Shown here piece by piece: positions 21,501 to 59,800 of a stretch of 64,000 nt of DNA (positions are counted from its first letter, which is position 1; each line of letters starts with the position of its first letter). Both the position numbers and the translations under genes were made by a program. Origin of the DNA: Styela clava (Eukaryota); NCBI RefSeq assembly GCF_964204865.1, contig NC_135258.1, positions 10,168,001 to 10,232,000 on the forward strand, in the 5' to 3' direction. Under the pieces are notes generated by a model. The model was not told where the DNA came from. It did no database searches and worked only from the letters and a program-made list of their open reading frames with translations.

Positions 21501-22722
21501 ATTTTATAATATGTAACTAAACGAAATATTTAGAATTATTTAGAAAGAGACGCCAATAAGGATTATTATTTCTTACAAAAAAAAATGAGTTATTTCAGTT
21601 GGTGTAAATTTCAAATCATCTTTAAACAAAAATATTTCTGAGTCTCAGTGATACTGCTTACATAACTCTACACAATGTATTTTCGCCCATGTTCTTACCA
21701 TTCTGCAAAATAGGTTTTCCCAGCACTGGTGCATCATCCTTCTTTCGCTTTAAACACGAAAAAGCGGAGGTTTTAGGTTCCGCATACACGTATAAACTTT
21801 TCCATGTCAACCTAACTCCTTTTCTAGATATTCTATTCGTTTCTGGTGTAGGTTTGGCGGAAAAATTACTGTAAACGTTTGGTTGGCGACTTTGGCTTCC
21901 ACGAACACCGTTATCTCCTGAACAACAGATACATAATTGAATCAATTAAAATAATATTGTTATTTCAAAGTCATTCCAGATAAAATTCAAATTTACAAAA
22001 TTACATTCAACATTTGGGCAATTATTTTCTGCAAAACGACAAAACTTACAGAAGTGATAATCCCAGCTTAGAACAAGCGTGAATAACATTCGATGGGTGT
22101 GTTTAGATTTAGAAGATGGAACCAGTGGATGAATCTTCAATATATGAAATATGTATGTATCTGTTATGCTATCCAAGATGGTGATGTCGACATAATCCTA
22201 GTCACAGTTATCAGGTGACAATCATAGCCTGTCACAATGCGCCGACCATTGATTGATTAAACTGGCATATACAGGCACCGATAACTTATGATAGAACGAA
22301 TACCGTAGTCTTGACGGTTTTAACTATTGGCTACAGTCAAAACATTGGCTATTATTGTTTTTTCAATCTATTTTTACCAAACAGAATTTGCAGTTATGTC
22401 AGAAGTGTCATGGCGCAAACTTTTCTAGCGACCCCCTATAACATTTTTTGTTATTTCTAGTGTTTTTGGAAAAATTGAATACTCGTATATACAGTGTAAA
22501 TTTGATGTATACTGCAATCAATCAAGTCGAGAGCTGCTGAATTTGTTTACTCAATATTCAAGATCAAGTCTGAACCAGCCCAAGTTACAGCTATGAACAA
22601 AATAAATTAGGCGACTTTACTGAACACTTGAAATAAAACAATAAAATCTAATTCACGATATGACGGTTATTACCTCCATAAAACCCAAGTCTAATAAATC
22701 TTTGTGTACGGTAACTTTTCAT
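12503..22722 (-). CDS. white: White-like ABCG half-transporter, ~15 coding exons, with an apparent frameshift at ~13441
   Basis: Exons: 22674-22722 (tentative first), 21699-21917, 21166-21287 (Walker [10 protein letters not shown]), 19822-19935 (Q-loop AYVQQDD), 19157-19327 (signature ISGGE), 18530-18635 (Walker B/D-loop [12 protein letters not shown]), 17989-18121 (H-loop TIHQPSSE), 16372-16564 (NPADH), 16016-16144, 14810-14953, 14331-14481 ([10 protein letters not shown]), 13776-13959, 13395-13490, 13045-13127, 12503-12607. Order is NBD then TMD. Splice phases agree except across exon 13395-13490. Confidence 0.92.
15632..15779. repeat. Family A MITE-like repeat in a white intron
   Basis: ctcctgaagtatgcgcaccaagatggcg...gtgtaccaggttagggttcagg matches the other family A copies. 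Confidence 0.6.
16889..17808. mobile_element. TA-flanked TIR element (920 bp) in a white intron
   Basis: Perfect ~32-bp TIR TCGTCACGCTAATAACCGAATTGCGTAAGTCA at both ends, flanked by TA dinucleotides. No evident coding capacity. Confidence 0.85.
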
Positions 22723-25393: not shown

Positions 25394-26460
25394 ATGGCTG
25401 ACGCGATAACTCAACAGGAAAAGGATTTGGCGGACAGATTAAAAGCAGCTTGCACACAATATGGAGATGAGATAGTTACCAAACTAAAATAATGTTCGGA
25501 CATTTTATATAAAATGGGTAAATTATATATGCATAAAACGGAAACATCAACAAGTGTGACACAAAAGCTGGGTTTGCTACATTAGCTAGCAACTTACTTA
25601 GGAAGAAGTACAGCTATCTACAGAATATGAAAGAGTGCAAGAATATTTCCGATGATTTGCCGTGATTTGTCAAGTCGTTTTGACAGGCTTGGGTAAAACA
25701 ATCATTCGTAGTGTCGGTGTCAAATCTATCAATGACTTATATTCGGAAGATAAATCGAAAAATTGGTATTATGATATGTTCACAACGAGCGGAGTATGTT
25801 TTGATGGAATGATTCCATATTTCTTGTAATACGCAACTTGGGCGACAAGAACCAACAAAGAAAAGACAACATAAAGTTGAAGTCATTCAACCAGCGAGTA
25901 AGATGGCTTCCTATTTGACGACCGAAGAGCATATCAAGAACGGCAATTATCTCAAAGATATTTTAACCAGGACATGCTTTGTATATGGAGATGAAAAGGT
26001 TTACAACAATTTCAGATAACTGGTCGGAAATATTATTGGAGAAGATATGGACAAGTATTCGATGAAATAGAAAAGAACGGTAATCAGTAAAATTTGACGT
26101 AAAAACGTCTTTTTATCGACCACTTACAGCAATTATTGCATACGCTGCGCGCATTTATAAAATTCCTTCTATAATTCCAGCTTTGATATCCTGACAAAAT
26201 TATATTTTATGTTGCAGAGAGATTTCCATGACACTCAATATGCACTTGCTACTGCCTGCGAACTTAGACTCAAGTTTACGCAGAAGGAGGTTGTCGTGGA
26301 TACAACGTTACGCCAAACTACTTGTACAAATTTATAAGCAAAACATGTGCGGTAAACTGTACAACATACGCACAAGTTTGCTGAAGTTATGCGGGCTTGT
26401 ATCTTAAAACACTTGGGCATTACATCAAATTGTACAATTGAACCGGGTCCTGGTATGTCA
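25394..26460 (+). pseudogene. Pseudogene copy of the nucleotidyltransferase/helical-repeat gene at 53479-56823
   Basis: Begins MADAITQQEKDLADRLKAACTQYGDEIVTKLK* (E33 to TAA at 25490-25492). A large deletion follows TQK. Homology resumes at STEYERVQEYFR*FAVI and continues (SINDLYSEDKSKNWYYDMFTTSGVCFDG) with frameshifts up to IEPGPG. The C-terminal half is absent. Confidence 0.93.
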
Positions 26461-34422: not shown

Positions 34423-36129
34423 TTATTCATTCATTTTCTTAATTAGGTCTCGCTTTGATCTGAGACGACTTTCAACTCCGCCTATAAACTTTTTCTCTTG
34501 TTCGTCGCCCCTCCAATCTTTAACTTTACGGTAGCATTCCAGAGCTACTACGTAATTTTTCTCCGATTCAATGTGGTTGCCGTCTAGGCCGTAAGCTATT
34601 GCTTTATTATTCCACAAATGACCATAAATACGATATTCCTGAGCACCTTCACCAAACTTTTTCTTCATGAAATCAATTCCAATATTGCAATAGTCTATTT
34701 CTTTTTTATATTCTTCGAGAGCACCATACATAGCTGCGATTAAGTTTATACCATATGCCTCTTGAGTGAGTTTCAAAGTTGGTTCAATATCGCGAAAACT
34801 TTGCACGACTGTAAAAAGCTCTAGCAGTATTTCCACCCCAAAATCTTTGGCGATAGCATGCATTTCCTTCCCCTTCTTTTTCATCGAAATTATGATATCG
34901 TAAACTTTCACAGCTCTCTCTCCGTGGAACCTTACAATAGCCACGTCGGGACTCAACTCTATCTTGTACAGTTTAGCCGAACAGAGAATTAAAATTAGAG
35001 CACGAATATATTGGGAATTATCAATATAACTGTTAATCACTTTGTTGACGTCACTCAATTTCGGTCGGTGTGATGACGTCAACATCGTTTCAAGTTCGAT
35101 GATTCTCTTTGTTGCATTCATATTCCGATGAAGTCGGATATAGCATTCTGCCAACATTAGTTGTTGAGTTATGGTCAAAGGTAATTTCTCAAGCATTGAT
35201 GCCGCTTCATGAAATTTTGAGTTTTGAATCAAGTTTCTTGCGGGCTCTGAACAATAAAAGTATTAACGCCAAATAAGATGGAATTATGTTGACAAAGAAC
35301 TCAGTAATTTGCAACTTAGTCACGTTATAAGAATAACTTCGGTATAATGGGAAATTCAAATAGGAATGGCCATTTTCAAATACCTAATGATTTCAGAATC
35401 AAATCGAATATTTTTTTTCCGAATCGGATCTCGAATGCTCGGAAGATATGTTGATGTGTATTTATTATAATGGGTCCTCCAGTTACATAAATTAGTCTAA
35501 CCCTAACATGTAGGTATAAGCTGTGACAGATGTGTCATTTAACATGGACTGCCATACGAAACTTCAAAGTAATCACTCTTCGGGGACCAACAAGTCAAGA
35601 GATTTCCATAAATCAATACCAAGTTTAATTAATGTTTGACGAAATATTAAGGAAATATTTCAAACGTGATTTAATATGATTAGCGTTAAACATACCCAAC
35701 ATTATATTCTGAGCATCGGGCGACAGACTCGTAGCTCCGTTCATTTCAGCAGCGAGATGTGAATTCGGTTGAACTTCGGTGTAAGGCGGTGGTGAATCTA
35801 TAAATAGAAGAACTTGTTTATTTTTATTTTGTACTTTTAAGTAATAACTGAATGAATACTGATTTCATTATAGTGAATAGAAATTGCTGCCAAAAGGTTG
35901 GTGAGGTAGTATTGACGCAAGCATCAGTTTCGATATTTATATTTCTAGAAAAGCCCATACCAAAAGTAACATGATATGTTTTCATTCGTTTGACTATCCG
36001 AAAAGATCCCATGGTATACAGAATAATATGACATATACCTTGATAATCTCCGACATCGTCTACTATGCCAGAATATAATTCTTGTTCAGTAGGAGCAGAC
36101 GGCTCAAGATTCATCTCTTTCTTTGACAT
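34423..36129 (-). CDS. PSAP/PPxY-motif TPR-like protein, copy A (338 aa; exons 36039-36129, 35696-35797, 34423-35246)
   Basis: Two phase-1 GT-AG introns join MSKKEMNLEPSAPTEQELYSGIVDDVGDYQ|DSPPPYTEVQPNSHLAAEMNGATSLSPDAQNIML|EPARNLIQNSKFHEAA... to the 269-aa ORF. The C-terminus has TPR-like helices (YGHLWNNKAIAYGLDGNHIESEKNYVVALECYRK). All three copies share this structure. Confidence 0.88.
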
Positions 36130-37358
36130 TTCCTATTTCTTGTGACAATTGGTTTCGAGACAAACTTTCAACTCAGCTATATTGCTATATTACAAGCTAT
36201 ACGCCGTCATTTAACAATTGCAGTTTAAATATATATATATATACCTTTTCTAAAATGCACCATCATAATTCATATGACACTCACGTGATGCGCAGCGTAA
36301 ATATTTGGCGTACAAACATGCGCTATTACCCATGTATGAGCCAATAGACTTTCAATAATTTCTTCGCGTTTCGAATATATTTGAACCCGGTCCATTGTCA
36401 TATTTAGGCTAGAGTACAAAAAAGTTTTCCTGACTGATAAAGAAAACAGCTGCTGATTTCTTAACGAAGGAAATGAAACGACTTCGATTTTTTGAGTTCC
36501 ATATTCTGTGTTCGTGAGGCTGGGAACGATGCGCAATCATCACGGGTTAAATCTTTAAGATATAATAATCACATGCCATGTAATCTCATGTTTACCACGC
36601 GCTTTCGTTTGAGAAATTCCCCACGATCTTTTTTTAGTTGCTTGTTGGTGAATTACTGGGATTTTTGACACAGAGTTCCATGTATTATCCGGCGGAATGT
36701 GTACATGATGGCTTAAGCTGTGTAGTTACACCATGCGCTATCTATTTGCATCTCCGTTTGTGTGTATCTGCAAATTGTAAAACTTGAAAGTCTTTCAAAC
36801 TCAGTTTTACCTTTGCGTGTGACTTGTGAATATAGTTTTGCGCCTGTCAGTAAAATTTCAGGCTTATGTCTCGCATCATGGAAACACATTATGGGTTCAA
36901 TACATCACAATACATACGGCTATAACTCAGAAAATTACATAGTAAGTACAGATCCGTTGTCGCCATTTTCGTTCCGTGTTGTTTTTCCGTGTTCGTCCAT
37001 ATAACGTCACCGACGCGTGTCTGATGTGTCGAAGCCTCATAATGTCTACTGCTGTCGAGGATTCGAAATAACCCGTAGGTTATATTATAATTTGAAATTT
37101 TAATAGTAGTAGCAGTATTATAGACTCTATCCGTAGGTTCTAGTATGTCTACGAAATTCTATAACAAACTAAATCGGAAGGCCACGGTAATTTGATACAG
37201 TACACTAATGCCTATATTGGTTTACATTGGCTATTGCGTATACTGTATTGACATATCGGGAAGCCTCGTTAAGTATAAAAAACTTGTGCGTTGAACCATA
37301 ACGAAATTTGACTGGCAAGCTTGCAAACTTTTTTGGAGTTGTTGCACTGACTTTCAGA

Positions 37359-37515
37359 ATGAAACGGTTCTGCTCGAAAGTTGTAATTATTACAGACAAG
37401 TTACAAGTAGTCATTCATTGCTCGCAGGACTGTTGTTGCGCATTTATGTTACCTTTGCCCATATATGCAGGTCTCAATCAGGTGCTTCTAGTGGAATAGG
37501 AGCTGCCACGGCAAT
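37359..37515 (+). pseudogene. 5' SDR fragment (exon 1 plus start of exon 2)
   Basis: MKRFCSKVVIIT with the donor mutated to ACAAGT, then GASSGIGAATA truncated at the junction with the next repeat unit. Confidence 0.85.
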
Positions 37516-38116
37516 TTTTACGTCACTTTTTACCGATTGCTGATTATCCAATATTACTGAAGTGAATAAGAACTTTCATGTTCGGGGACACGTTCATAGG
37601 CTATTGTTGAACACTAAATATTCTAATCTATACGAGTCTAAATAAATAAACAATTGAATAGACATAAAGAGCCCACAAAAAACCATAACGTCAAACTGGA
37701 ATTCTGACGCCAAACGTGTTACCAGAATTGTTACATTTGGCCACAAAAAAGCCAATATGACAACCCTGCTCACAACGACCTAATCACGCACACAGGGTTC
37801 ATTTGAGTTTGCTCATCTACCAGGACATATGCTCAAATGAACCAGGATGAAATGAGAAAAGTGTTACACAATAGTTTATATGTTAATAGTGTAAGAAACA
37901 ACATGAAAGAGTAAAGCCTTAAAATATTATCGTTCTAAGCTTTGCTTTGGGCTTTGTTATTAACAAAATCAAATTAGATTTTTTGATTCATAAAAATTGG
38001 TTTATTTTGAAGTCTTAACTATATTTGGTTTTAATTGATGATCATAATTGGAGATCGATTCATTAAATTTTATACAAAGTAAATCATTGATGGAATAATG
38101 GTTTATGAAAAAAATA

Positions 38117-39733
38117 TTATTCATTCATTTTCTTAATTAGGTCTCGCTTTGATCTGAGACGACTTTCAACTCCGCCTATGAACTTTTTCTCTTGTTCGTC
38201 GCCCCTCCAATCTTCAACTTTACGGTAGCATTCCAGAGCTACTACGTAATTTTTCTCCGATTCAATGTGGTTGCCGTCTAGGCCGTAAGCTATTGCTTTA
38301 TTATTCCAAAAATGACCATAAACACGATATTTCTGAGCACCTCCACCAAACTTTTTCTTCATGAAATCAATTCCAATATTGCAATAGTCTATTTCTTTTT
38401 CATATTCTTCGAGAGCACCATACATAGCTGCAATTAAGTTTATACCATATGCCTCTTGAGTGAGTTTCAAAGTTGGTTCAATATCGCGAAAATTTTGCAC
38501 GACTGAAAAAAGCTCTAGCAGTATTTCTACCCCAAAATCTTTGGCGATAGCATGCATTTCCTTCCCCTTCTTTTTCATCGAAATTATGATATCGTAAACT
38601 TTCACAGCTCTCTCTCCGTGGAACCTTACAATAGCCACATCGGGACTCAACTCTATCTTATACAGTTTAGCCGAACAGAGAATTAAAATTAAAGCACGAA
38701 TATATTGGGAATTAGCAATATAACTGTTAATCACTTTGTTGACGTCACTCAATTTCGGTCGGTGTGATGAAGTCAACATCGTTTCAAGTTCGATGATTCT
38801 CTTTGTTGCATTCATATTCCGATGAAGTCGGATATAGCATTCTGCCAACATGAGTTGTTGAGTTATGGTCAAAGGTAATTTCTCAAGCATTGATGCCGCT
38901 TCATGAAATTTTGAGTTTTGGATCAAGTTTCTTGCAGGCTCTGAACAATAAAAGAACTACCGTCAAACAAACTGGTATTATGTTGAGGAAGAACTCAGTA
39001 ATTTGCAACTTACTCACGTTATAAGAATAGGTTCCGTATAATGGGAAATTCAAATAGGACTGAGCATTCTCAAATACCTCATGATTTCAGAATCAAAACG
39101 AATATTTTTTTTCGAATCGGATCTCGAATGCTCGGAAGATATGTTGATGTGTATTTTTTTTATTGTAATGGGTCCTACAGATACATAAATTAGTCTAACA
39201 CTAACATGTAGGTATAAGCTTGTGACAGATGTGTCATTTAACATGGACTGGCATACGAAAATTCAAAGTAATCACTCTTCGATAATCACAAGTCAAGAGA
39301 TTTCCATAAAGCATTACCAAGTTTAATTAATGCTTGACGAAATATGAAGAAAATATTTCAAACGTGGTTTAATATGAGTAGTGTTATACATACCCAACAT
39401 CATATTCTGAGCTTCGGGCGATAGACTCATAGTTCTGTTCATTTCAGCAGCGAGATGTGGTTGAACTTCGGTGTAAGGCGGTGGTGAATCTATTAATAGA
39501 AGAACTTGTTTATTTTATTTTGTACTTTTAAGTAATAACTGAATGAATACTGATTTCATGATAGTGAATAGAAATTGCTGCCAAAAGGTTGGTGAGGTAG
39601 TATTTACGCAAGCCATAGTATACAAAATATTATGACATATACCTTGATAATCTCCGACATCTTGTACCATGCCAGAACATAATTCTTGTTCAGTAGGAGC
39701 AGACGGCTCGAGATTCATCCCTTTCTTTGACAT
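38117..39733 (-). CDS. PSAP/PPxY-motif TPR-like protein, copy B (336 aa; exons 39643-39733, 39394-39489, 38117-38940)
   Basis: Same exon structure as copy A, with an in-frame 6-nt deletion in exon 2. It differs from A at 9 positions over the 269-aa ORF. Confidence 0.88.
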
Positions 39734-40741
39734 TTCCTATTTCTTGTGGCAATTGGTTTCGCGAAAAACCTCCAACTCAGCTATATTACAAGCCATACAC
39801 TGTCAATTAACAAACAATTGCAGTTTAAATATGTATATATATATCTTGTGTCGGCTGCACCATGCGCATCATAATTCATATGACACTCAGGTGATGCGCA
39901 ACGTAAATATTTGGCGAACAAACATTGTTTGCAATAATAATGCATGCGCTATTACCCAAGCACGAGCCATTAAAATACACTTTCAATAATTTGATAATTG
40001 CATCGCGTCTAGAATATATATCTCTTTGTAAAAATTCGAGCCTGGCACATTGTCATAATTAGGATAAATAAAAAACAAAGTTTTCCTGACTGATGAAGAA
40101 AACAGCTGCTGATTTATTAACGGGGAAAATCAAACGGCTTGGATTTTCTGAGTTCCATATTCGGTGTTAATGAGAATTCGTTTGAGGCTCAGAACGACGC
40201 GCTATCATCACGGGTTAAATCTCCAAATAATAATAATCACATGCAAGCTATAATCTCATGCTTACCGTGCACCTCGTTTGAGAAATTCACCACGATCTTT
40301 TCTAGATGATTGTTGGAAAATTACTGGGATTTTTGACAAACAGTTCCGTGTATTATCTGGCGGAATGTTTACATGATCGCTTGAGGTGGGTAGTTACACC
40401 ACGTGCAATCTAGTTGCATCTCGGGTTTGCGTGTATCTACAAACTGTAAAACTTGAAAGTCTTTCAGACTCATTTTTACTGTGTGAATATAGTTGTGCGC
40501 ATATCGTTAAAATTTTGAAAGGTTTATGCCTCGCATCATGGAAACACATTACTGCTATTGGGGAACTATGGCCCTACTCGTGCGTGCCTTTACACCAGTA
40601 CCATTAAAACGTACTGATGTGTCGAAGCCTCAGAATGTCTGCTAATTTCGCCGTATCATGCACGAGATTCGAAATAACTTGAATGAATTTGAAAATTTAA
40701 AATGTTGCAGCAGTATTATAGACTTTATCCGTAGGTTCTAG

Positions 40742-43700
40742 CAATGACATTAAACAACATGATGCGCAACTCCGGCATTTTTGTCCGAAGATCGTATTCG
40801 ATAGCACGCTCCAATGCACATACTTGACGAGACGAAAACGAGCGGATGTGTGCTGCTTTCAAGGCGTAGCACGAATGGTGGTCGTGCCTGCTTTGACAGT
40901 TGTTGTCGATTTTAATGATATTTTGGAAAGTTAAGGTAAAAAAAAAATCGGAAAAAGGTAAGGTAAATACTATTGTTGTATATCACACCCGGGCGTCGCA
41001 TTGTTAAGTACATGTGGGAAAGCCAGCCTTTGTCAAATACTACGAAGTTATTAATTCAGTTCTTTGCCCATTTGCCGAAATTACATATTTACTTACCCCT
41101 TATGGTTTCAAATAGTTCATGCACCTCCAGTTAGATTTTTTTTTATTCAGTGTGGATATATACTCACTGTTGATTGCTGCTCATTGTAACATACTATTGC
41201 GTATTCACTTTATTTGCGTATTGAATCAAAGTGTTAACAAGTTCACCTAACATTTCACTCATACCGGTCTATATTGTATAGTCTGATCTCTCAAGTATTT
41301 GGAGCCACGAATGCTTGTAATTTTCTGACTAAACCCTTTTATTAGTTGGTTTATATACCAAATTCAGTAAAATATTTTTTACATAAAACATAAGATATTG
41401 GATTTATTAGCTTTTCCATTCTAAATCATATAGACTGCTTTATTTATTCTTAACGAAAATTAATAAATTTCCTCTCTTTCTTCAGATGTGAAAGTTGTGG
41501 ACAAACCTGTCTAAGCATTGTGAGACTCCTGCAGCACAAGAGGCAATAGTAGAAATAGTAAGTATATCAATCAAGAAATTAAGCCGACATAAAGCAAAAC
41601 TTTCAACTATTCGTCTAATCTCAATTTCCTATTATTTATTCACAGGACAACTATAGCAGAAGGGGAGATATCAGAAGTCTGGCGACATATCAGTGACAGT
41701 GTGATTCCAATAAATATAATTAGAGTACTACATAAATGTTTGCAATAGAAAAACAACCTATGGAGGCATGCAAAGACATTTGACCCTCCGGTAGAGTTGT
41801 GTATGGCCCCCACATCCTGCAGGGCTTGAGGAAAATAGCTAAAAATTCCAAAGCGTAAGATTGCATAAGCGGTCTTGTTTGTAAAAAGGCACAAAACACG
41901 CCAGACATACCTAAAAACAGCTTTTAAAAATGAGAATTACGGGTAACTCACTGCACCTGTGTTATATTTGGTTCATCAACTTCCCTCGAACGATTAACAA
42001 TAATTGTAATAGTATTCTGGAAGTTTTTTTTTATCTAAATGTAATAGATTTTTCAAACCTTTTAAAGTGAAATTGATTATTCACACAGAAAACAATTTAC
42101 TGAAAGTAGTTTTGGAATATCAATTTTTTTTTGTCCACTTTTTGACCCAATTAAGAATACACATCAAGCTAGCAAAAGAATACTTGAATAAAACACTTGA
42201 GTGATTAAATTAAACGCAAAGTACATGAAGAAGGTGGCATTTTCGAAGAAAATGGGAGTTGCAATATTTCTGCTTTTCACAAAATTCTGAAGCACATTGT
42301 TTAATTTGTAATATTTCCCTCAATACAATGAAAAAACACAATAAGCTCAGCAGTCAATATGACAAATTCGAAGACCAACTTCGAACAGAAAATTTCCATG
42401 TGTTTGTATATTAATATAATTATACAACGACTTAGTTACTAAAAATCAATATCAATAATAATTAAAGCAATCCTATGCCACGCAATGTGGTGCGAAATGT
42501 CTTGTCGAAAAAATCTGTCATTTGTTTTTTCACTGATCTAGACATGAAATGATAAAAGTAACTTTTTTGCATTACTGGAATTATTTAAACATTCGCAAAG
42601 ATCCAGATTAACCCATGATCATGTGGCCTCGTTAGTTAGAGTTGGTACTATAAACTCATTTTAGCCTGGCCCTAGTATGCTGGTGACACAAAAAAGAAGC
42701 CAAACGTCAGGACAAATGTAATTATTAAAACATTGAGTTTATACTGTAGTATTTTTGTTAATTTTAGGGTCATATATTTAGATTAAGTTATTTTTAGTGT
42801 ATGTATTATTCTTTCCTTATCTAAAGCTTGTTCAAAAATGATTTTGATGGTTGTACATAGAATTTTATGATTTTTTATAACAAATACAGTAGGCTAACTT
42901 GCAAATGTTGCAATAATAGTGGAATGCAAATATTAATATGTAATTGCAGTTGAAATTGAAAAAATAATAAAACTTAATCCAACTGTTTAGTTGCATCACA
43001 ATATATGTCATGTCGCAAACTAAAACTATCTTGAAAATATCTTTTAAGTATACATTATCAAAAACTGTTTGCGGCCCTTTTTACAATTTCCAAAATGCAA
43101 TGCGGCTCTCGAAAACTCATGAGTTTGACACCACTGATCTATTCTAGACGATTCAAGCATTGCTTTGGGAAATAATATCACTTCAATTAAATTTAAAAAA
43201 TATCGCTATATTAAATACAAAATCGTTGCTATCATAAAGATAAACCAGTTCAGCCACTCGAAATATATTGGCCTTCACAAAGCAATGGAGGCAAAATTGA
43301 GAGTTCATGAGCTATAAACATTTGTTCTTTTCTTTGTCTTGAACTTTTCATACTCCACAGCCCCTATTAATTTTTTTTAATTTAATTACCATGTGATGGT
43401 CATACATATCTTTAACTTGTATTTTCTGTCATGATGTATTAACTCAATGTGCCAAACTAATAATTAGTGTGCATATTTTGCCTTCAGATGACATAAATGT
43501 ATTGTCTTGTTTATTACCTCAGCTTGGAGTATTGACAAGAAAAAGGTGCCAGTAAATTAGGTAAAAAATTTTTAACTCTTTGTTATAATCAGAATTCACA
43601 ATCAATAGGAATTATAAACAGCCAACAATCAATGAGAATTATATGCAAAATCCCTCAGAATAAATTTGTCTAAAATCGGAGGAAGGCAAAAAATATAGGT

Positions 43701-44424
43701 AGTTTCCATCCACACAAGCATTTCAAGAAGACTTGCTCGAGCCAAACTAAATGAGCATCGTCAGGTGATCGGTCGCTGCAAGTTGAATTCAGCCCTGCAA
43801 CCTCCTGCATATAAGATAATATTAATTAGTGGGCTATGAGCTAAATTCCTAAATTTAAACAAACCTATCTACGATGCATTATGTACCAGCAATGTTACCT
43901 ACGATTAACTGAATATGTAATATGGCTAATAAATTCACCTACAAAAGCAAGTTCGATAGGTGCAAACTTTGTGTTATGGAATTGTATCACAGCACAGTTT
44001 TGTAGGACACCCTCTTCAAATGAAATTTCAATGATTAAGCGCAAACATTAAAATTACAAACTTTGAACTTTGTCATTATCTGCAAAATGTTCCACACAAA
44101 TCTTCCCGCTATCGCGTTTGTACTCTTCTCTGATAAAAAAAAAACGTCTATGAATGCCAAGAATTGCTCTTTACAGCTTGCCTGCCATTCCAGATTTCCA
44201 AGTGAGCAAAACTTCTTAGATATAGAGATTATTTTGTTTTGTTACAGGCGCAAAAAGGCAGGTACTACACGTAAAAAAGACGCCGAGTAGCAAAAGCAAG
44301 CGGAAAACGGACGCGAAAGGCGACGAGAAATATGTGCATTGGAGCGTATCATGAAATACAATCTTTCGCCTGTAGTCTTATGGAGTGACGTCAGAGTTGC
44401 CTATCATGTTGTTTAATGTCATTG
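40742..44424. mobile_element. 3.7-kb P-element-like non-autonomous DNA transposon
   Basis: 31-bp TIR CAATGACATTAAACAACATGAT(GC/AG)GCAACTC with CA...TG termini and a 7-bp TSD GTTCTAG (40735-40741 and 44425-44431). Paralogous sites at ~37136 and ~50178 are empty. The superfamily call is inference. Confidence 0.85.
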
Positions 44425-44632
44425 GTTCTAGTATGCATACGAAATTCATGGTAATTTAATACAGTACCCTAATGCCTGGATTGGTTTACATTGACTATTG
44501 CGTATACTGTATTAATATATCGGGAAGCCTCGTTGAGTATAAAAAAATTTGTGCGTTGAACCATGACGAAATTTGTCTAGTGCGGATTGCAAGCTTACAA
44601 ACTTTTTCGGAGTTGTTGCACAGCCTTACAGA

Positions 44633-44957
44633 ATGAAACAGTTCTGCTCGAAAGTTGTAATTTGTTACAGGCAAGTTACAAGTAGTTAGTTATTCATCGT
44701 TCGTAGCCGATCAGGACTGTTCTTGATCGTTTATGTTACCTTTACCTATATATGCAGGACTCGAGCAATGAGTTCTGCGTCCACCGATATAATACATGAT
44801 TGCAATCTGGCATTTTTACAATAGGTGCTTCCAGTGGAATAGGAGCTGCCACGGCAATAGCATTTGCAAACGAGGGGGCCAGGTTGGCAATATGTGGAAG
44901 AAATATATAAAGACTGGGTGAAACTGCTAAAATATGTAAAAAAAAAATGGAGCTGAG
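44633..44957 (+). pseudogene. 5' SDR fragment (exons 1-2) with frameshift and stop
   Basis: Exon 1 MKQFCSKVV has a 1-nt insertion but keeps the GCAAGT donor. Exon 2 (44825-44957) reads GASSGIGAATAIAFANEGARLAICGRNI* and has an expanded A-run. No further exons. Confidence 0.88.
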
Positions 44958-45075
44958 GTAGATTAAAATCAGATTCCTAGATAGTTTTAAAGGTTAATAT
45001 TCCAAGTCAACCAACCCAATGGCCCGGAGCATTCAAACCGATACTGTACAATTGATTGGGGAAGCAAGTCTGATT

Positions 45076-45306
45076 TCAATTTATTGTTGCACGATTTGGA
45101 ATTGAATTAATCGTAAAGTAAGAATTCGATAAAGTTACAAATTCTGATACTTTCTCTTTACCATCTGTCCATATGAGGAAACAGTCATTAATGAAGGGGG
45201 AATAGTACTGTGGTTTTAACGGGATTTTGTCTAATAGTTCAGATTCCAGGTTTGCCATAAACATGTTCCCATAATTGGGTGCCAATTTTGTTCCTATCAC
45301 CGTTGC
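45076..45306 (-). mobile_element. Degenerate reverse-transcriptase fragment, Penelope-like retroelement
   Basis: IGTKLAPNYGNMFMANLESELLDKIPLKPQYYSPFINDCFLIW follows the PLE RT pattern GTxMAPxYANLFM..LE......P..Y.RYIDDIF.IW, with catalytic YIDD decayed to FIND. Confidence 0.75.
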
Positions 45307-46568
45307 CTGAATTTGGAGATAATGTTTCTCTTCAAAAACGATGCTCGGGGAAATATCTAAATGCTAAGAAGCTATTAGCTAAGCAATGGATGTTTCCCCG
45401 ACCTTTGATCTTGGGAAAATGGTTGCTATACTTTACCATTGCAAAATTTTCCATGCCTAATTTAGTGGTGCCTGTTTACGTCTTTCAAACCACCATTTTC
45501 ATTCAAAATATTCAACCACCTAAAATTTAAAAGTGCCGTTAGGGAAGTCTAGCCTAGCCTATCAATTATTTTTGCACTAATTTTTGATTACTGTGAATTA
45601 TTAAACTAAATCTTCTGGGAAAATGAAAGGATCATTAAGGGTATTTGACTCATACTTAACATTTCGGAAACACAACTAAAAACTGACAAATAACACAAAA
45701 AAACACGAAAACGAGGCAATGTTTACAACCATGCCTGAAAATTTGTCTGACCGCCGAAAGTGAGTGAGAGGCTGCTAAAATTTCGGTACTCCCAAAGTAT
45801 GAACATAATTTTATTTCAATTTTCCTTATTTTAGTTCTATTACGAGTTCGGGGACTAACCAAGTGACTCCCGTAATATTTGTACCTGAAATTATGGCCTA
45901 GCCTGGTACACATACTACGTTCCGATGTCTGCCATCTTGATTCACATACTTCGGGAGTACTGAAATTTCCATTGTTACGTCATTTTTAACAGCTTGTTGA
46001 TTAGTTAATATTACGGAAGTGAATAAGAAAGTTCATGTTCGGGGAAACATTCATAGGCTATTGTTGCACTCTAGATATTGTAATCCTTATGATTTTAAAT
46101 AAATAAACAATAGAATAGACATAAAGAGCCATGGAACGCCAAACTGGAATTCTGACACCCAACTTGTTACCATACCGAATTGTTAAATTTGGCCTTAAAA
46201 AGTCAATATGGCAACCCTGCTCACGACGACCTAATCCCGTATACACAATATTCATATGAGTTTGCTCAGCTATTAGGACATTTGCTCAAATGCTGCAGGA
46301 TGAAATAAAAACGTGTTACACAATAGTTTTCATGTTAAAAGTGTAAGAAACAACGTGAGAGAGTATACAGTCTTGATATATCATCGTTCTAAGCCTTACT
46401 TTGGGCTTTGTTATTACAAAAATTAAAAATGATTTCTTGATTCATAAAAATTGGCATATTTCGAAGTCTTAAATATGTTTGGCTATAATTGGTGATCATT
46501 ATTGGAGATCGATTCATCAATTCTATACAAAGTAAATCATTACTAGAATAATGGTTTAAAAAAAATTA

Positions 46569-48506
46569 TTATTTATTCATTTTCATAATTTGGTCTCGCT
46601 CTGATCTGAGACGACTTTCAACTCCGCCTATAAACTTTTTCTCTTGTTCGTCGCTCGTCCAATCTTGAACTTTGCGGTAGCATTCCAGAGCTACTACGTA
46701 ACTTTTCTCCGATTCAATGTGATTACCCTCTAGGCCGTAAGCTATTGCTTTATTATTCCAAAAATGACCGTAAACACGATATTTCTGAGCACCTTCACCA
46801 AACTTTTTCTTCATGAAGTTAATACCAATATTACAATAGTCTATTTCTTCTTTATATTCTTCAATAGCACCATACATAGCTGCGATTAGGCTTATACAGT
46901 ATGCCTCTTGATTGAATTTCAAAGTTGGTTCAATATCGCGAAAACGTTGCACGACCGAAAAAAGCTCTAGCAGGATTTCCACCCCAAAATCTTTGGCGAT
47001 AGCATGCATTTCCTTCCCCTTCTTTTTCATCGAAATTATGATATCGTAAACTTTCACAGCTCTCTCTCTGTGGAACCTTACAATAGCCACATCGGGACTC
47101 AACTCTATCTTATACAGATTAGCCGAACAGAGAATTAAAATTAAAGCACGAATATATTGGGAATTATCAATATAACTGTTAATCACTTTGTTGACATCAC
47201 TCAATTTCGGTCGGTGTGATGAAGTCAACATCGTTTCAAGTTCGATGATTCTCTTTGTTGCATTCATATTTCGATGAAGTCGGATATAGCATTCTGCCAA
47301 CATGAGTTGTTGAGTTGTTGACAAAGGTAATTTCTCAAGCAATGATGCCGCTTCATGGAATTTTGAGTTTTGAATCAAGTTTCTTGCAGGCTCTGAACAA
47401 TAAATGTATTAACGTCAAATGAGATGAAATTATGTTGACAAAGAACTCAGTAATTTGCAACTTAGTCACGTAATAAGAATAGGTTCCGTATAATGGGAAA
47501 TTCAAATAGGACTGAGCTTTCTCAAATACCTCATGATTTCAGAATCAAATTGAATATTTGTTTTCCGAATCGGATCTCGAATGCTCGGAAGATATGTTGA
47601 TGTGTATTTTTTATTATAAATGGTCCTCGAGACACATGAATTACTATAGCCCTGACCATGTAGTTTCAAGCTTGTGACAGATGTGTCATTTAACATGGAC
47701 AGTTATACAAAACTGCAAAAGTAATCAATCGCTATTCAGGGACTAAGAAGTCAAGGGGTTTCCATAAAACAATACCATTTCAATATTTGCCGAAGTAAGA
47801 AAATATTTCAAAGTGATTCATTACGAGTAGTGTTTAACATACCCAACATCATATTCTGAGCATCAGCCGATAGACTCGTAGCCCCGTTCATTTCTGCAGC
47901 GAGATGTGAATTCGGTTGAACTTCGGTGTAAGGCGGTGGCGAATCTATTAATGGAAAAACTTGTTCATTCTTATGTTGTACTTCTAAGTATTACCTGAAT
48001 GAATACGGATTTCATTATAATGAATGTAAATTTCTGCCAAAAGGTGAAAGCCAGAAATAACAACTGTATTAGGTGCCTTGTCCATCAAACTACCTTTCTT
48101 TACATATTGCATCAATATAAGTCATCACAGTGTGAAATATAAGCTCGGGAAATGCTGAATATTGCTATATAAAAACTGCTAAAGCATATTAATTTGGACT
48201 ATCAGTTCAATGGAAAATGGACAGCATGATGCCTATAAAGGTAGAAATCATGATTTGAACAACTGAAATAAGAGGTTTTTAAAAAACTTCTTTGTCTCAA
48301 AAACAATTACATTATTCGACAATCTCATACAGTTTTAGAGGTAATATTGACGCAAGCATTAATTTTGTCACTATCTAAAAATATCCCATGGTATACAGAA
48401 TAATATGACATATACCTTGATAATATCCGACATCGTCTACCATGCCAGAATATAATTCTTGTTCAGTAGGAGCAGACGGCTCAAGATTCATCTGTTTCTT
48501 TGACAT
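46569..48506 (-). CDS. PSAP/PPxY-motif TPR-like protein, copy C (338 aa; exons 48416-48506, 47843-47944, 46569-47392)
   Basis: MSKKQMNLEPSAPTEQELYSGMVDDVGYYQ|DSPPPYTEVQPNSHLAAEMNGATSLSADAQNMML|EPARNLIQ... The most divergent copy, with all splice sites intact. Confidence 0.88.
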
Positions 48507-53478: not shown

Positions 53479-56400
53479 CTACGTAAGTGAAAATGAAGGT
53501 ATCGCTGAAGTTGGATCTTCCATTTCCATCTTATTGTCCAGGGCAATATAACCCTCCCAAAAGTTTGGTACTGTATAACCATTATCCATTTTAAAAATCA
53601 CTGTGTGGTTTAACATTACCATAGATCTGATTTTCAGCATTCTGGTCGTATTTTGAGAGTTAATAACTTTCCAGAATGATTTTGCAGCACTTGTGTATCG
53701 GGACTTGTAAAAAGCATCAATGCCAGTGCTGAAGGTGGATGAAACATTGCTGAGTACGTTCCCAGAATGACTTTGAATTGCTGTTGAAACGAATGTACGC
53801 AGGCAATTGTTTACCCATACGCAAATGTTGCCGTAGAGTATGTCAATCAAATAGCGAACGTTGTAATTCTTAACATCACCATTCCGGAGATCCGCATGTA
53901 ACAATTTCCAAAAGTAGTTGACGCTTTTAGAGAAATCAAATGTTTCCATTTCAGAACTTAAGGCCGGCATAGAAATGAAAGAATTAGATTCCACTTTCAT
54001 TGTTTCCCAAAGGTTTTGTTTATTTGTCTGTATCATAAGTTTTGAGAGGGATTTTCGAATGACGTAAGATTCCGTAAGGTCACGCAGCAAACCTAGAATA
54101 TGTGCATGGGTAAAATGGTGACGAAAAATATTTACAATTTTCCACAATCTGCTTGAGTACTTCAGTATCTCGCCTGCAATCATTTTATCAAGATAACGAC
54201 GCAAAAGTGAAGAGAAAGTCGTCATAATGACAAATTTTAAACGACCATCATTTTGCACTTCATTCGGAGATTCAGAAAAAACCTGAATAAATAAATCAAC
54301 ATCGAATTCTTCCATGCGACGAATGTCGATTTTTAACAGCAAATAAATTGCACTATTGTAACGAAAGTTGTTCAATTTATCATCTTGTGGATTTCTACAT
54401 ATTTCAAGTGCTCTGTTAATAAGATCTGACCTAGTGGATGCATCAGTTTCTTTATCAGCTACTTTTAAAAGACAAATCATCTTCATTAGGTCCATTCCAT
54501 CTTTTGCTGTTATTTTCCCCACAATTCCCATTTGCGATTCCTGAATTACATCTGTGGCTTTTAATGTGTAATATCCGTCTTCAAATAAGTCTTGGCCAAC
54601 TTGTGTGCACAATATAGTTTCAGAAAATTCTATCAACATGGGTTTCCCAATTTTCTTACACCCTCGTTCGATTGAGTCGTTTAAAACATCACGTAAACCT
54701 TGCGCTCCACATTCCAGCATATCCATATTTAACTGAGCTATTGCCACCCCAAGTCGAAATGCTAAATTCGAATATATATCATCGTATTTTAATAATTCCT
54801 CCTTACACAATTCAAGCATTTCTTCCGGCGCCATGACTTGCTCCATGGATACAGCCTCATCGGTACGAATCATCAGCATACTTCCACCAAAATCGAAGTA
54901 CCAGCTTGCAATTTCTTTGTCAGCCATGCTTCTTTCGAACCAAATTTTATGAATTTTCATCAATTCGCTTCGTCTGTCTTGGTCTTCATATATATTAGAC
55001 AGCAAACCACAAGCATTTGTAATTTTAAGATTATCTTCAGAATGTTCGATGATTTTTAACAGTCTCTTTTCAGTTGTTTCTAACCATTCTTCTGAAGGCG
55101 ATATCCCGAGTCTGCTGTTCTCCATGAGAACAGAATGAATGCGCCATATTTCTAGTTTTTCGGTTTTAAAATTGGACATATCAGTCAGTTCTTTTTCTAG
55201 AGATGTGAGCGCATCGTCATATTCACTCAAAAACATCAAGGCTGGAGTGATTCCACTTGATATACCAGGTCCCGGTTCGATTGTACGTTTTGATTTAATG
55301 CCCAAGTGTTTCATAATGTAAGCCCGCATAACTTCAGCAAACTTGTGCGTATGTTGTAGACAGTTTACTGCACATTTCTTGCTTATAAATTTGTATAAGT
55401 CGTTTGGCGTAACTTTGTATCTACGACAACCTCCTTCTGCGTAAACCTTGAGTCTAAGTTCGCAGGCAGTAGCAAGTGCATATTGAGTCTCATGGAAATC
55501 TCCCTCAAACATAAAATCTAATTTTGACAAGATATCAAAGCTAGAATTGGAAGAAATTTTATAAATGCGCGCAGCGTATGCAATCAGTGCTGTAAGTGGT
55601 CGATAAAAAGACGTTTTCACGTCAAATTTCACGGATTCGTGGAGAACCCAAGTTGTTCCGGTTACGCCCACGTTAACGTTCTTTTCTATTTCATCGAATA
55701 CCTCTTTATATCTTTTTCTATCCATTTCTTCTCCGATAACATTGCCGACAAGATATCTGAAATTGTTGTAAACCTTTTTATCTCCATATACAAAGCATGT
55801 TCTGGTTAAAATATCTTTCAGATAGTAGCCATTCTTGATATGCTCTTCTGTCGTCAAATAGGAAGCCATCTTACTTGCTGGTTGAATGAGTTCAACTTTA
55901 TGTTGTCTCTTTTTTGTTGGTTCTTGTCGCCCAAGTGGCGTATTACAAGAATGAGGAACCATTCCATCAAAACATACTCCGCTTGTTGTGAACATATCAT
56001 AATACCAATTTTTCGATTTATCTTCCGAATATAAGTCATTGATAGATTTGACACCGACACTACGAATGATTGTTTCACCCAAGCCTGTCATTACGACTTG
56101 AAAAATCACTGCGAACCATCGGAAATATTCTTGCACTTTTTCATATTCTGTAGATTGCTGTACTCCTTCCTCCAGCACAATGACATGTTCAAAATCAGAA
56201 TAAAGTGTTATTTCTTCGCGGGTTAAAGATCCTAGCCCAACGATTGCAAAAGCACACGGTGGATCCCCAAGAATATCTATGCAATTTCTGGCTATGTACT
56301 GCATTAAATGTTTAAAATGACTCGTAGTATTTTTCATAAGTTTGTGAATGGATTGAATTCTCTCCTTCTGTTTACGGTGAATTTCAGATTCAGTCAAATC

Positions 56401-56823
56401 TTCCTCAATCAATTCTAAAGTTTCAATGGAATTTCTCTCTAAGCCACGAAATAGTTTGAATCCTCTGTAGATATTTTTAGAAAGATTATCAACACTGATA
56501 TCTTGATTTGCGGCGTTGGATGCTGCTAATAATCTGGCATCCAATAATTTCAAAACCGGTTGTAGATTTTCAATACCTTCTGTGTCTGAAATTATTTCAA
56601 ACCTTACTCTTGCCCCATGTAGCAATGTAGCACTTTTAATAAAATCCATCTTTTGTGTCATACCTGTTGATGTTTCCGTTTTATCCATATATAATTTACC
56701 CATTTTATATAAAATGTCCGAACATTCCTTTAGTTTGGTAATTCTCTCATCTCCATAAGGTGTGCAAACTGCTTGTAAGCTGTCCGCCAAATCTTTCTCC
56801 TCTTGAGTTATCGCGTCAGTCAT
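53479..56823 (-). CDS. Intronless 1114-aa protein: DUF294/GlnD-GlnE-like (Pol-beta superfamily) nucleotidyltransferase, helical substrate-binding domain and long helical/TPR-like C-terminus
   Basis: Uninterrupted 3345-nt ORF. Motif CAFAIVGLGSLTREEITLYSDFEHVIVL (aa ~190-217) fits hGS-x-x-R-x-E-x4-SD-x-[DE]. FDVKTSFYRPLTALIAYAARIYKISSNSSFDILSKL (aa ~399-435) resembles the DUF294_C/GlnE helical domain. The ORF is certain; the domain call comes from motif recognition. Confidence 0.85.
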   Translation of the reverse strand: MTDAITQEEKDLADSLQAVCTPYGDERITKLKECSDILYKMGKLYMDKTETSTGMTQKMDFIKSATLLHGARVRFEIISDTEGIENLQPVLKLLDARLLAASNAANQDISVDNLSKNIYRGFKLFRGLERNSIETLELIEEDLTESEIHRKQKERIQSIHKLMKNTTSHFKHLMQYIARNCIDILGDPPCAFAIVGLGSLTREEITLYSDFEHVIVLEEGVQQSTEYEKVQEYFRWFAVIFQVVMTGLGETIIRSVGVKSINDLYSEDKSKNWYYDMFTTSGVCFDGMVPHSCNTPLGRQEPTKKRQHKVELIQPASKMASYLTTEEHIKNGYYLKDILTRTCFVYGDKKVYNNFRYLVGNVIGEEMDRKRYKEVFDEIEKNVNVGVTGTTWVLHESVKFDVKTSFYRPLTALIAYAARIYKISSNSSFDILSKLDFMFEGDFHETQYALATACELRLKVYAEGGCRRYKVTPNDLYKFISKKCAVNCLQHTHKFAEVMRAYIMKHLGIKSKRTIEPGPGISSGITPALMFLSEYDDALTSLEKELTDMSNFKTEKLEIWRIHSVLMENSRLGISPSEEWLETTEKRLLKIIEHSEDNLKITNACGLLSNIYEDQDRRSELMKIHKIWFERSMADKEIASWYFDFGGSMLMIRTDEAVSMEQVMAPEEMLELCKEELLKYDDIYSNLAFRLGVAIAQLNMDMLECGAQGLRDVLNDSIERGCKKIGKPMLIEFSETILCTQVGQDLFEDGYYTLKATDVIQESQMGIVGKITAKDGMDLMKMICLLKVADKETDASTRSDLINRALEICRNPQDDKLNNFRYNSAIYLLLKIDIRRMEEFDVDLFIQVFSESPNEVQNDGRLKFVIMTTFSSLLRRYLDKMIAGEILKYSSRLWKIVNIFRHHFTHAHILGLLRDLTESYVIRKSLSKLMIQTNKQNLWETMKVESNSFISMPALSSEMETFDFSKSVNYFWKLLHADLRNGDVKNYNVRYLIDILYGNICVWVNNCLRTFVSTAIQSHSGNVLSNVSSTFSTGIDAFYKSRYTSAAKSFWKVINSQNTTRMLKIRSMVMLNHTVIFKMDNGYTVPNFWEGYIALDNKMEMEDPTSAIPSFSLT

Positions 56824-59800
56824 ATCTAATCTGTTTTAACGCTGTATATATGTAGAGATATTCATATACAATGTAATTAATAGTAAGAACTTAAATTTAG
56901 ACTAAAAGCAATTATGAAAGCTAATCACACAGTCCTGTCATCTACATAACAAAATACAAGAAGTGATACGTAGGCCTATATTGGAATCCCATTCAACAAG
57001 TAAATTTCGTTTATTCACTACATAACAATTCAGTCTGGGTAAGGGTAAGAAATCGAACACTTCACACCAACGCTTTATTATGTGTGCCTATTCGGGCGTA
57101 TCACGAAAACTGCAATCCATTTTACAACATTTTGTGTAAATTTCATCAAACTAACTTAACAAATAACAACTGGTTGAAAAAGGGAAATACCATATTGTAA
57201 ATTACCATTTAACAAATATGAAAAAGAATTGTTGTTTACCCTACATCCAACGCTTGAACTCATAAACCTCATAACAACATAGGCCTCAAAAGGCGATATA
57301 AAACTTAGTGGTCCAAAACTAGAACGCTTGAGAGTCTCGATAAATATAAGAACAGTAAAAAAGACATAGAATTTGAGCATTACACAACACCGCGTAGGCT
57401 TTACGTATGTCCGTTTATTCAGGTCTTCGGGTCATATTCTTTTATTTATTAGCAAACAGAAAACTACTGACAGATGACATTTTTATTATTTATTGACTAA
57501 ACTAGCCTACGCTAGGGTCTTTTGTGTTTGATCTACAATTGAAGTGTAGCGTCGTTAGATATATATAATCTGTAAAAAACTTTACACATCATTTGGTACC
57601 TTAAGTATTCTTACGGCTGTGGAGTTATAGATAAGTTCCAAAATCAGATTACAGATGCACAATGAAATTCTATCTCCGACTTCCGAACGTGCAAAAAACG
57701 ACTCCGATTTAAAGTCGGCACATCATGTTGAGCGTTGAAAACAAGCTTGGTACCACTCGCCGCCTATTTACCTGTGTGACTTCGTAGGTTTAATACTTGT
57801 AGCCGCATATTTGTTGATATAACTCTGGTCAGTTAGGGTTTCCACAGTCAAGTCTATGTATCTGGAATGGCTACCTGGTCAACTATTTTTCATGGTTAGG
57901 CAGTCGTCCCCTTCCATGAGATAAATATAAAAATCCGTTCCACACTGTTGCAGAAATTTTCGATTAAGTTGAATTTTAAATTGCTGTAACATATTCTGGA
58001 TACCACCTTCCTGCTTGGCTCCAAAATAAGACCATCTCCTGACAAAGTGTGCAGTCGAGCAGGCGCCACAAATCTTGCTTTAGGAACTCTGGCAATAGAA
58101 GTGACCAATATTTTTAGACTTTTTTTAAATTTCTCACTAACGAATAGTGCATTGCTAGCGCCATGGGCTTCTCGAACTTAGAAACATTTGGGAGTGTCGG
58201 TAGCTACCATGGACCTTTCAAAACAGCTCATGTCGCTGATTCAAAGTTTTCAAAACCCTGATATTGTATCAATATCTGCGTTCCACGTATCTGTGACTGA
58301 AATTAAATATATATATAGTAATTTGTCGCTCAGTGCATATACTGTACACAATCTCAGAAGTCTTTACCACATTGACTCGTTTATTCAAACTTTTTAGTTA
58401 GTTCCACTAGGTACTGTAAATTTATAATACGTGTAAAAGAGGCGATACTGTATCGACCATAGCGCATCTCGCACGTGGAATAAACTTTATTTTGAAAGAT
58501 CAATATAAGCGACATTTGTCTATTGCACACCGTTCCGGTGACATCATTAAATTTCGAATGGTATATATTCTGGTTTAAATAGCAACGGGAACTGGTGAGG
58601 ATTTGACTGAAAGAATATAATAGTTACTGCTACGAGTCGAAATAATAATATAATACCATTATTATTCACACTGAATATTTTTGTTGACAAACTTTATACA
58701 TTTCACGTTAATTCAGAGATCGGTCGTCTGCGATGTCCTATTTCAGGAAACATGTCTTTCTATCATAACGGTATCAAGGTTAGTGTATCGAAAACGCAGT
58801 AATTGTCATCGCTGAAGTTGTCAAAATTGCGGGTGTTTACTTGTTTGGTTGTCTTACTTAGATAGGTGCTCACTGTTTTTCCATAAGAAAGATTGATAGT
58901 CCAGAGGACAGGCCTAGGACAGACTTGAGCTGTATTTAGAAATATCCTTAGTGTAACAATTAATGTCAAATTTACAAGAAATAGATGCATTTCTAATATT
59001 ATATAGTAAAAAAAGGATATTTTCTTTTTATAGCTTCTTTCATTGTTGGCTACATAATGGTTTTAATTATTTAAAAATTATCGAAGTAGTTAAATATGCA
59101 TGCAACTGCTTTCGTTGTTATAGTTGAACTATATATAAGAAGTACCGAAATATATTTGTATTTGTGCAGAAATACTCTTTAGTCACTTAGGAAACGAAAA
59201 TGTGATGTGAAATTACCGCCTAAACTTCTTGGATAATGCCAAACAAAAATATGATGTGAAATTTTTATGTTTTTTTCTTCTTTCAAATTAGCCTGTATGA
59301 CGCAGAAGGAAACTTTTGCCGGACGCGTTTAGTCAAAATTGAAAACTCATTCAATTTTCAACAAAGCACGTACAGAGGTATGTCTCATTCAAAATAGGGC
59401 AGCGGTTCCCGAAGGTTGCGTCGCGGCGCATTAGTGTGTATATAAATCAATAAATTTATTTTCCTCTTCGTTGTCGTTTACTTCCTGTTACGTAGTGTCT
59501 GCCTTTATTCTTACATAATAATAGAGGGAAAAACTACCTGGTGCCATTTCGCGAGCTGCAGTTCATATAACTACTGAAACGAGTTTAGCGAATATGGGTG
59601 ATTTTGTTAGCATTTTGAATGAAAATCGAGCAGAGATGAGGAAGAAGAGTTGACCTTTTGCCTTTATTCCTTATGCCTACGTGTTTACAAACTTTCTAAT
59701 GCATACAGTACACATTAGCGATAACAAAATTGAGCTTTATTTGAAAAGCTGCATTTTTTTCGTGCAAGTGCGCCGTGAGTTTTTGTCCGTTATAATTTGG

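Follow-up and report, generated by a model that had tools for sequence, protein, structure and literature searches.

The window analysed here, 64,000 nucleotides at positions 10168001-10232000 of C10 in the 377-Mb genome of the ascidian Styela clava, contains three tandem genes (g1, g2, and g3) whose proteins join a short N-terminal tail, carrying the motifs PSAP and PPPY, to a predicted solenoid of tetratricopeptide repeats (TPR). We propose, with a probability of roughly 45%, that g1-g3 encode alpha-arrestin-like (ARRDC1-like) soluble adaptors which connect a TPR-bound partner with a Nedd4-family ligase and with ESCRT-I, an endosomal sorting complex. The TPR solenoid, which resembles the TPRs through which LGN and kinesin light chain bind peptides, would bind a peptide of a membrane-associated partner, and this partner would supply the membrane anchor that the g1-g3 proteins lack. 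PPPY would bind the WW domains of a Nedd4-family HECT ligase, leading to ubiquitylation of the partner or of the adaptor, and PSAP may bind the UEV domain of TSG101, a step weakly modelled here, and so bring the complex to multivesicular bodies or budding vesicles. Gene structure and splicing are shown, the fold is predicted, and each binding step is inferred. The architecture would be new, and plausible, within a known kind of adaptor, and the case for it depends on two motifs of four residues, found in one species in three young genes that are nearly identical.

A scan of the window for open reading frames returned three frames of 279 codons on the minus strand, with ends at 34423, 38117, and 46569. 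Each proved to be the last exon of a three-exon gene on that strand, in which every intron is GT-AG and the protein has 338 (g1), 336 (g2), or 338 (g3) amino acids, as the original prediction had held when it read the frames as third exons of genes for 336-338 amino acids. In g1, the coding part of exon 1 (36039-36129, beginning MSKKEMNLEPSAPTEQELY) contains PSAP at 36102-36091, and exon 2 (35696-35797, DSPPPYTEVQP...) contains PPPY at 35792-35781, both exons being placed by the gene model and by spliced contigs; exon 3 (34423-35246; RefSeq XP_039263301) carries the whole TPR solenoid (about residues 65-338) and the stop. The gene model of g2 places exon 1 at 39643-39733 (PSAP 39706-39695), exon 2, two codons shorter than its g1 counterpart, at 39394-39489 (PPPY 39484-39473), and the TPR exon 3 at 38117-38940 (RefSeq XP_039263516). 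That of g3 places exon 1 at 48416-48506 (PSAP 48479-48468), exon 2 at 47843-47944 (PPPY 47939-47928), and the TPR exon 3 at 46569-47392 (RefSeq XP_039263729). An in-frame stop lies two codons 5' of the ATG in g1 and g2, and no fourth copy was found in the window or within 10 kb on either side. The motif exons had been described as hidden; they are small and spliced, as gene models and contigs agree, but they had not escaped annotation, the three RefSeq records ('uncharacterized' proteins of Styela clava) being the full-length g1-g3 proteins with the motif exons included.

In g1, splicing joins the motif tail to the TPR exon, and the gene is expressed. Both g1 junctions on which the original prediction turned (36039/35797 and 35696/35246) were joined in contigs of X1, X3, and X9, which came from three studies and were all three of the RNA-like runs compared; in a fourth run, X10, the junctions were unjoined and the introns were covered. 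These runs were called RNA-like by the guess of the tool, the RNA type not being on record, and the contig joints skipped the GT-AG introns exactly. One X1 contig spanned all three g1 exons with zero differences, and contig 5' ends extended to 36198 (X1) and 36355 (X3). Transcripts without exons 1 and 2 would have spoken against the original prediction, and the g1 contigs instead joined exons 1, 2, and 3. An exon-2 contig of g2 type was present in X9 (a 6-nt gap and 3 matching changes), which could alternatively be a g1 allele. No g3-specific contig was found at an identity of at least 99% to g3 in X3 or X9, and silence of g3 is not implied, since the contigs found in these two runs looked like g1 or g2. 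Two RNA-like runs of other organisms gave no match at 80%, which is no proof of absence. A short high-copy repeat was located inside intron 2 of g1 (35367-35419) and of g3 (47507-47645), where contig depth was very high.

In all three proteins PSAP occupies residues 10-13 (LEPSAPTEQE, exon 1) and PPPY residues 33-36 (DSPPPYTEV, exon 2), about 20 residues apart and on separate exons, so the earlier reading of exon 1 as encoding LEPSAPTEQE and of exon 2 as starting DSPPPYTE is true of every copy. Both motifs lie inside residues 1-48, which are predicted to be disordered, with a predicted local distance difference test (pLDDT) value below 50; the model thus places PSAP in an accessible region, as in TSG101-UEV ligands. 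The hydropathy maximum over 19 residues was 1.28, indicating neither a transmembrane nor a signal segment, again as first reported. When the g1 tail was shuffled 1,000,000 times, P[ST]AP arose in 0.8% and PPxY in 3.0% of the shuffles, and both together in 171 of them (0.017%, 1.7e-4), which supports the view that the motif pair is unlikely from tail composition alone. Conservation among the copies was harder to read. The TPR parts of g1-g3 are 90-97% identical, 52 of the 65 tail columns show no variation, and none of the eight motif codons differs between the three copies, silent positions included. The original prediction had stressed that the motifs are invariant while nearby residues vary; this is literally true but carries little weight, since among copies so alike the invariance alone is uninformative (Fisher p=0.15). 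The 13 variable tail columns stay clear of the motifs, none of them falling within 2 residues of either one (p=0.016; p=0.051, 0.004, and 0.001 for flanks of 1, 3, and 4 residues, all windows picked after the alignment had been viewed). The two motifs are embedded in separate blocks of 12-13 residues that do not vary, with silent changes beside the motifs at Leu8 and Ser32. Pairwise ratios of nonsynonymous to synonymous substitution rates (dN/dS) in the tail were 0.88 (g1-g2), 0.25, and 0.45.

Candidates for both partners were identified in the S. clava genome. Its one UEV match is of TSG101 type, lies in a single open frame, and aligns without gaps to the UEV of human TSG101 (E 3e-48); the frame, at L062:1351-2679 (C8 12.126 Mb), has 442 codons and is apparently intronless. 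WW and HECT matches were co-located on one strand in four places (C9 7.61 Mb, C17 0.25 Mb, C18 3.55 Mb, and C19 17.32 Mb), these loci being co-located domain matches and not built gene models. A tandem of five HECT matches, each in an open frame of ~1000 codons, was seen at C14 7.68-7.72 Mb. Six residues of the UEV pocket (Y63, Y68, I70, P139, F142, and S143) are listed in a preprint (bioRxiv 10.1101/2024.11.15.623737), and read against this list the S. clava UEV keeps five of the six (Y63, Y68, I70, P139, and S143); a TSG101 ligand from phage display quoted in the same preprint also contains EPSAP. The prediction of a complex between this UEV and residues 1-32 scored 0.52 versus 0.02 for the best of three controls, with a contact agreement between runs of at least 88% and a partner pLDDT of at least 56. 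In calibration, carried out without peptides, 51 of 78 solved pairs and 2 of 108 mismatched pairs attained the mark, and at scores of 0.60 or less 5 of the 78 solved pairs passed, together with all 4 mismatches that passed. The TSG101-UEV complex suggested at the outset was modelled above its controls, at a score within the weak band of the calibration, and the 0.52 may reflect memory because a like TSG101 complex has already been solved (a textbook pair). The model lends weak support to a complex of the PSAP tail with UEV.

The rest of the protein was predicted to be folded. AlphaFold2, run on a 27-row alignment, gave a mean pLDDT of 85 and a predicted template modelling score of 0.80, with an all-helical body, no strands, and a solenoid at residues 57-338. 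The top Foldseek matches were the TPR domains of LGN/GPSM2 and KLC1 (E 1.8e-4 to 1e-3, template modelling (TM) score ~0.38, identity 11-20%). The best VIA-align match had Z 13.9, a level generally reached by helical repeats, with a root-mean-square deviation of 5.9 over 188 aligned residues and many near ties, all of them helical-repeat proteins. The Atlas neighbours of the TPR protein were all TPR clusters (0.91-0.92). Pfam TPR matches of g1-g3 stayed under the cut-off (TPR_12 E 0.02-0.4), and those of the paralogues P0011, P0012, P0017, P0033, and P0051 were over it. As modelled, g1-g3 have as their body a TPR solenoid that has diverged and is orthologous to no named protein. For the TPR in g1-g3, pairwise dN/dS values were 0.23, 0.28, and 0.31, indicating purifying selection; the domain had been called variable, and on these values it is conserved, more so than the tail. 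The same pairwise values gave no indication that selection is diversifying the TPR, with single selected sites being possible among three copies. N278, nearly invariant in the TPR family and presumably a groove-lining position of peptide-binding TPRs, is kept in g1-g3. A reading of the proteins as Hsp70/90 co-chaperones, prompted by the expansion of Hsp70 in Styela clava (PMC7540406), was set aside on inspection by eye, in which the clamp residues were not evident.

The TPR exon belongs to a large family. Genome-wide, 120 candidates were scored, of which 95 matched at E<=1e-5; in the best 38 the match extends over at least 212 of 273 residues, and identity is 36% for the nearest ones beyond the window. 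When 20 relatives found with a 23-copy profile among cluster representatives were looked up, 10 were from S. clava, one from Ciona intestinalis, and one from Clavelina lepadiformis, the remainder being 6 Logan proteins without a name and, from amphioxus, 2 long TPR proteins, which matched in their C-terminal repeats only. In a quick tree of 73 rows, rooted at the midpoint and made with no clade test, from which rows with less than 200 amino acids of domain or with at least 600 amino acids were excluded, g1-g3 grouped with a Shimodaira-Hasegawa-like approximate likelihood ratio of 100%; their stem measured 1.04 changes per column and their end branches 0.02-0.06. Neither P[ST]AP nor PPxY occurred in any of 56 family proteins outside this clade, a set of proteins covering the family domain from which the clade's own six records, long generic TPR proteins, and seven cluster members that were redundant had been left out. 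A Met-started tail of at least 30 amino acids was present in 28 of the 56, in which shuffling expects 0.17 and 0.24 occurrences of the two motifs, so that the zero is an absence and not a depletion, only ~0.2 of each motif being expected. No donor gene for the tail was found, exon 1, exon 2, and their DNA matching only the three copies genome-wide. For 40 of the 92 other matches, ~9 kb of upstream DNA was read, and motifs numbered 20 in sense versus 18 in antisense, which is the background rate, two sense hits with a stop having been dropped from the count. All upstream P[ST]AP hits were within a few codons of a stop; upstream PPxY hits at L043 and L104 might be exonic, and the annotated L104 protein lacks PPxY. 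Since the motif exons match only the three copies, none of the 56 other proteins carries the motifs, and the upstream DNA is at background, the PSAP/PPPY tail is specific to the g1-g3 clade. It was gained by one clade somewhere along its long stem, within a larger ascidian TPR family. A lineage-expanded adaptor family had been proposed; the TPR family is indeed expanded, but the motif-bearing exons exist in three copies only. The original prediction had likewise counted on the motifs being conserved in distant paralogues, by its own account a point on which it could fail, and they are absent from all 56. A search of 5.8 billion proteins for an orthologue by the TPR query returned the window's own cluster only (1 of 656 candidates), as did the tail query (1 of 7 candidates), with lengths of 0.55-1.75x in both cases. 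Among viral contigs none of 17 pattern matches, and among metagenome contigs none of 176, was confirmed as a relative.

Several of these results weigh against the adaptor proposal. No TPR-bound cargo was found, the proteins have no membrane anchor (they lack a transmembrane segment, Gly2, and a C-terminal CAAX), the above searches turned up no orthologue from another species, and the motifs are missing from every other family protein in the set of 56. The S. clava UEV has Val at pocket position F142. Moreover, the shuffle and flank p values overstate the case, since the flank windows were post hoc (substitutions also cluster) and the stretch had been chosen among many for showing the motif pair, which weakens the shuffle value. 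One or both motifs may be incidental, a Pro/Ser/Glu-rich disordered tail having spelled PSAP and/or PPPY by accident and the accident being repeated in three near-identical copies. Each motif alone is not rare in tail shuffles, the identity of the motif codons is that of copies 90-97% identical in their TPR, the g1-g2 tail dN/dS is 0.88, no homologue backs the conservation, and the F142 change in the pocket points the same way. We nevertheless regard an accident as somewhat unlikely, given the joint shuffle rate, the location of the motifs on separate exons, each in its own invariant block, and the resemblance of EPSAP and SPPPY to known ligands.

The same motif evidence (shuffles, flanks, complex prediction) would be expected if the motifs acted on their own protein only, with PPPY as a Nedd4 degron and PSAP sorting the TPR protein to endosomes or vesicles, the TPR then being a payload or short-lived regulator and not a cargo receptor. 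That neither anchor nor cargo was found is consistent with such self-sorting, as are the long branch of the TPR and its position below all Pfam TPR cut-offs; purifying selection on the TPR and the retention of N278, a presumed groove-lining residue, argue the other way and leave it distinctly unlikely. An antiviral decoy, in which the tail would keep TSG101 and Nedd4 from viral late domains by competition, or a pathogen-sorting receptor, in which the TPR captures pathogen proteins, is very improbable. The motif pair is reportedly present in HTLV-1 Gag (PTAP and PPPY) and the TPR family is large and clustered, whereas no diversifying selection was evident in the TPR, no viral relative of the gene was found among the pattern matches in viral contigs, and PSAP and PPPY are also ordinary host motifs. 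Evidence on an immune or antiviral role (pathogen cargo, viral decoy) was found neither for nor against in this analysis. Under the adaptor proposal, and if the motifs work, g1-g3 would represent a natural ESCRT/Nedd4 adaptor in which a TPR domain was supplemented with two small motif exons. Such a case would illustrate simply, and in a way open to testing, the origin of new trafficking adaptors, and it would possibly be a TPR-based vesicle-loading module.

Tails of other kinds were found elsewhere in the family. A beta-rich segment ending [IV][GD]Q[IV][IVTN] is common to P0012, P0013, P0018, P0025, P0042, P0065, P0069, and P0075, the nearest paralogue cluster, on C3, being among them. Such tails (e.g. 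FAGDNV...IGQIV) occur on several chromosomes, with first exons at L088 and L090-L092, and they resemble amyloid signalling motifs. A RHIM/amyloid reading gained no support, since there was no Pfam RHIM and no Atlas match and the genome search returned paralogue first exons only; it is kept as a lead on the strength of the resemblance. YE[DE] is repeated 2-5 times in the tails of P0019, P0051, P0057, and P0167 (shuffle p<=0.0015, for a pattern derived from the very sequences tested), some of these tails continuing into a coiled-coil-like stretch. By resemblance, the repeats are candidate phosphotyrosine/SH2 docking sites, for which Pfam and Atlas gave nothing. P0084 and P0113, both unnamed Logan proteins, have a hydrophobic tail segment (hydropathy 2.8 and 2.2, respectively) that would put the TPR on the membrane or outside the cell. 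One could envisage a large ascidian family of TPR sensors, each encoded in a single exon, in which exchangeable exons for the N-terminal tail (ESCRT/Nedd4, YED, beta-rich amyloid-like, membrane segment) determine the output, the g1-g3 clade being an independently invented ARRDC1-like adaptor that loads a TPR-bound partner into extracellular vesicles; this broader picture is unlikely. The wider ascidian TPR family with clade-specific tails may outweigh g1-g3 in importance, and it is apparently undescribed. No paper on the family was found, most subscription papers being beyond reach, and neither 'TPR' nor 'tetratricopeptide' appears in the main text or the one accessible supplement of the S. 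clava genome paper, whose Table S8 gives representative expanded families only.

Other genes were noted in the window. An intronless frame of 1118 codons at 53482-56835 on the minus strand contains a nucleotidyltransferase domain, DUF294, that scores above the Pfam cut-off (E 2e-7). Inverted relative to it, a copy broken by stops and frameshifts lies ~28 kb away at ~25380-26460 on the plus strand. The amphioxus TPR protein P0021, a profile hit, likewise carries DUF294. Exons of an ABC-transporter gene were seen at ~16350-21950 on the minus strand (ABC_tran match 21031-21306), and a short-chain dehydrogenase exon at 61611-61910 on the plus strand.

Several known systems can be compared with g1-g3. 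Their best Foldseek matches make the predicted solenoid similar to those of LGN/GPSM2 and kinesin light chain, a likeness that reflects shared repeat architecture and not orthology, since identity is 11-20% and the TM score ~0.38; unlike these proteins, g1-g3 have no GoLoco or heptad region. Viral late domains, PTAP and PPxY, recruit ESCRT-I and Nedd4-like ligases, according to a published account (PMC2958808). The same two motif classes are present in g1-g3, which, unlike the viral proteins, are host genes with spliceosomal introns, no capsid or matrix domain, and no viral relative found, and their motifs are host-type as much as viral-type. ARRDC1 has PPxY motifs for Nedd4-family ligases. 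Its PSAP binds the TSG101 UEV and drives microvesicle release, and ITCH is present in ARRDC1 vesicles, as stated in the source (PMC9105457), and g1-g3 share with ARRDC1 and the alpha-arrestins a soluble protein with a putative cargo-binding domain and a PSAP tail. PPxY and PSAP lie within a disordered tail in g1-g3 as in alpha-arrestins. In contrast to the latter, the g1-g3 domain is a predicted TPR solenoid of helices only with no arrestin Pfam match, the tail is N-terminal, and there is no sequence relationship; unlike ARRDC1, the clade has been found in one species so far and its binding is predicted from motifs. In LITAF/SIMPLE, the folded domain is preceded by an N-terminal region that is flexible and contains both PPxY (NEDD4) and P(S/T)AP (TSG101), again as given in the source (PMC5142333). 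The flexible motif region of g1-g3 likewise precedes a folded domain, but LITAF has overlapping motifs and a membrane-anchoring C-terminal domain, whereas g1-g3 have neither a Pfam match to the zinc-binding, membrane-anchoring LITAF domain nor an anchor. By analogy, g1-g3 would work like ARRDC1 or LITAF while belonging to neither family.

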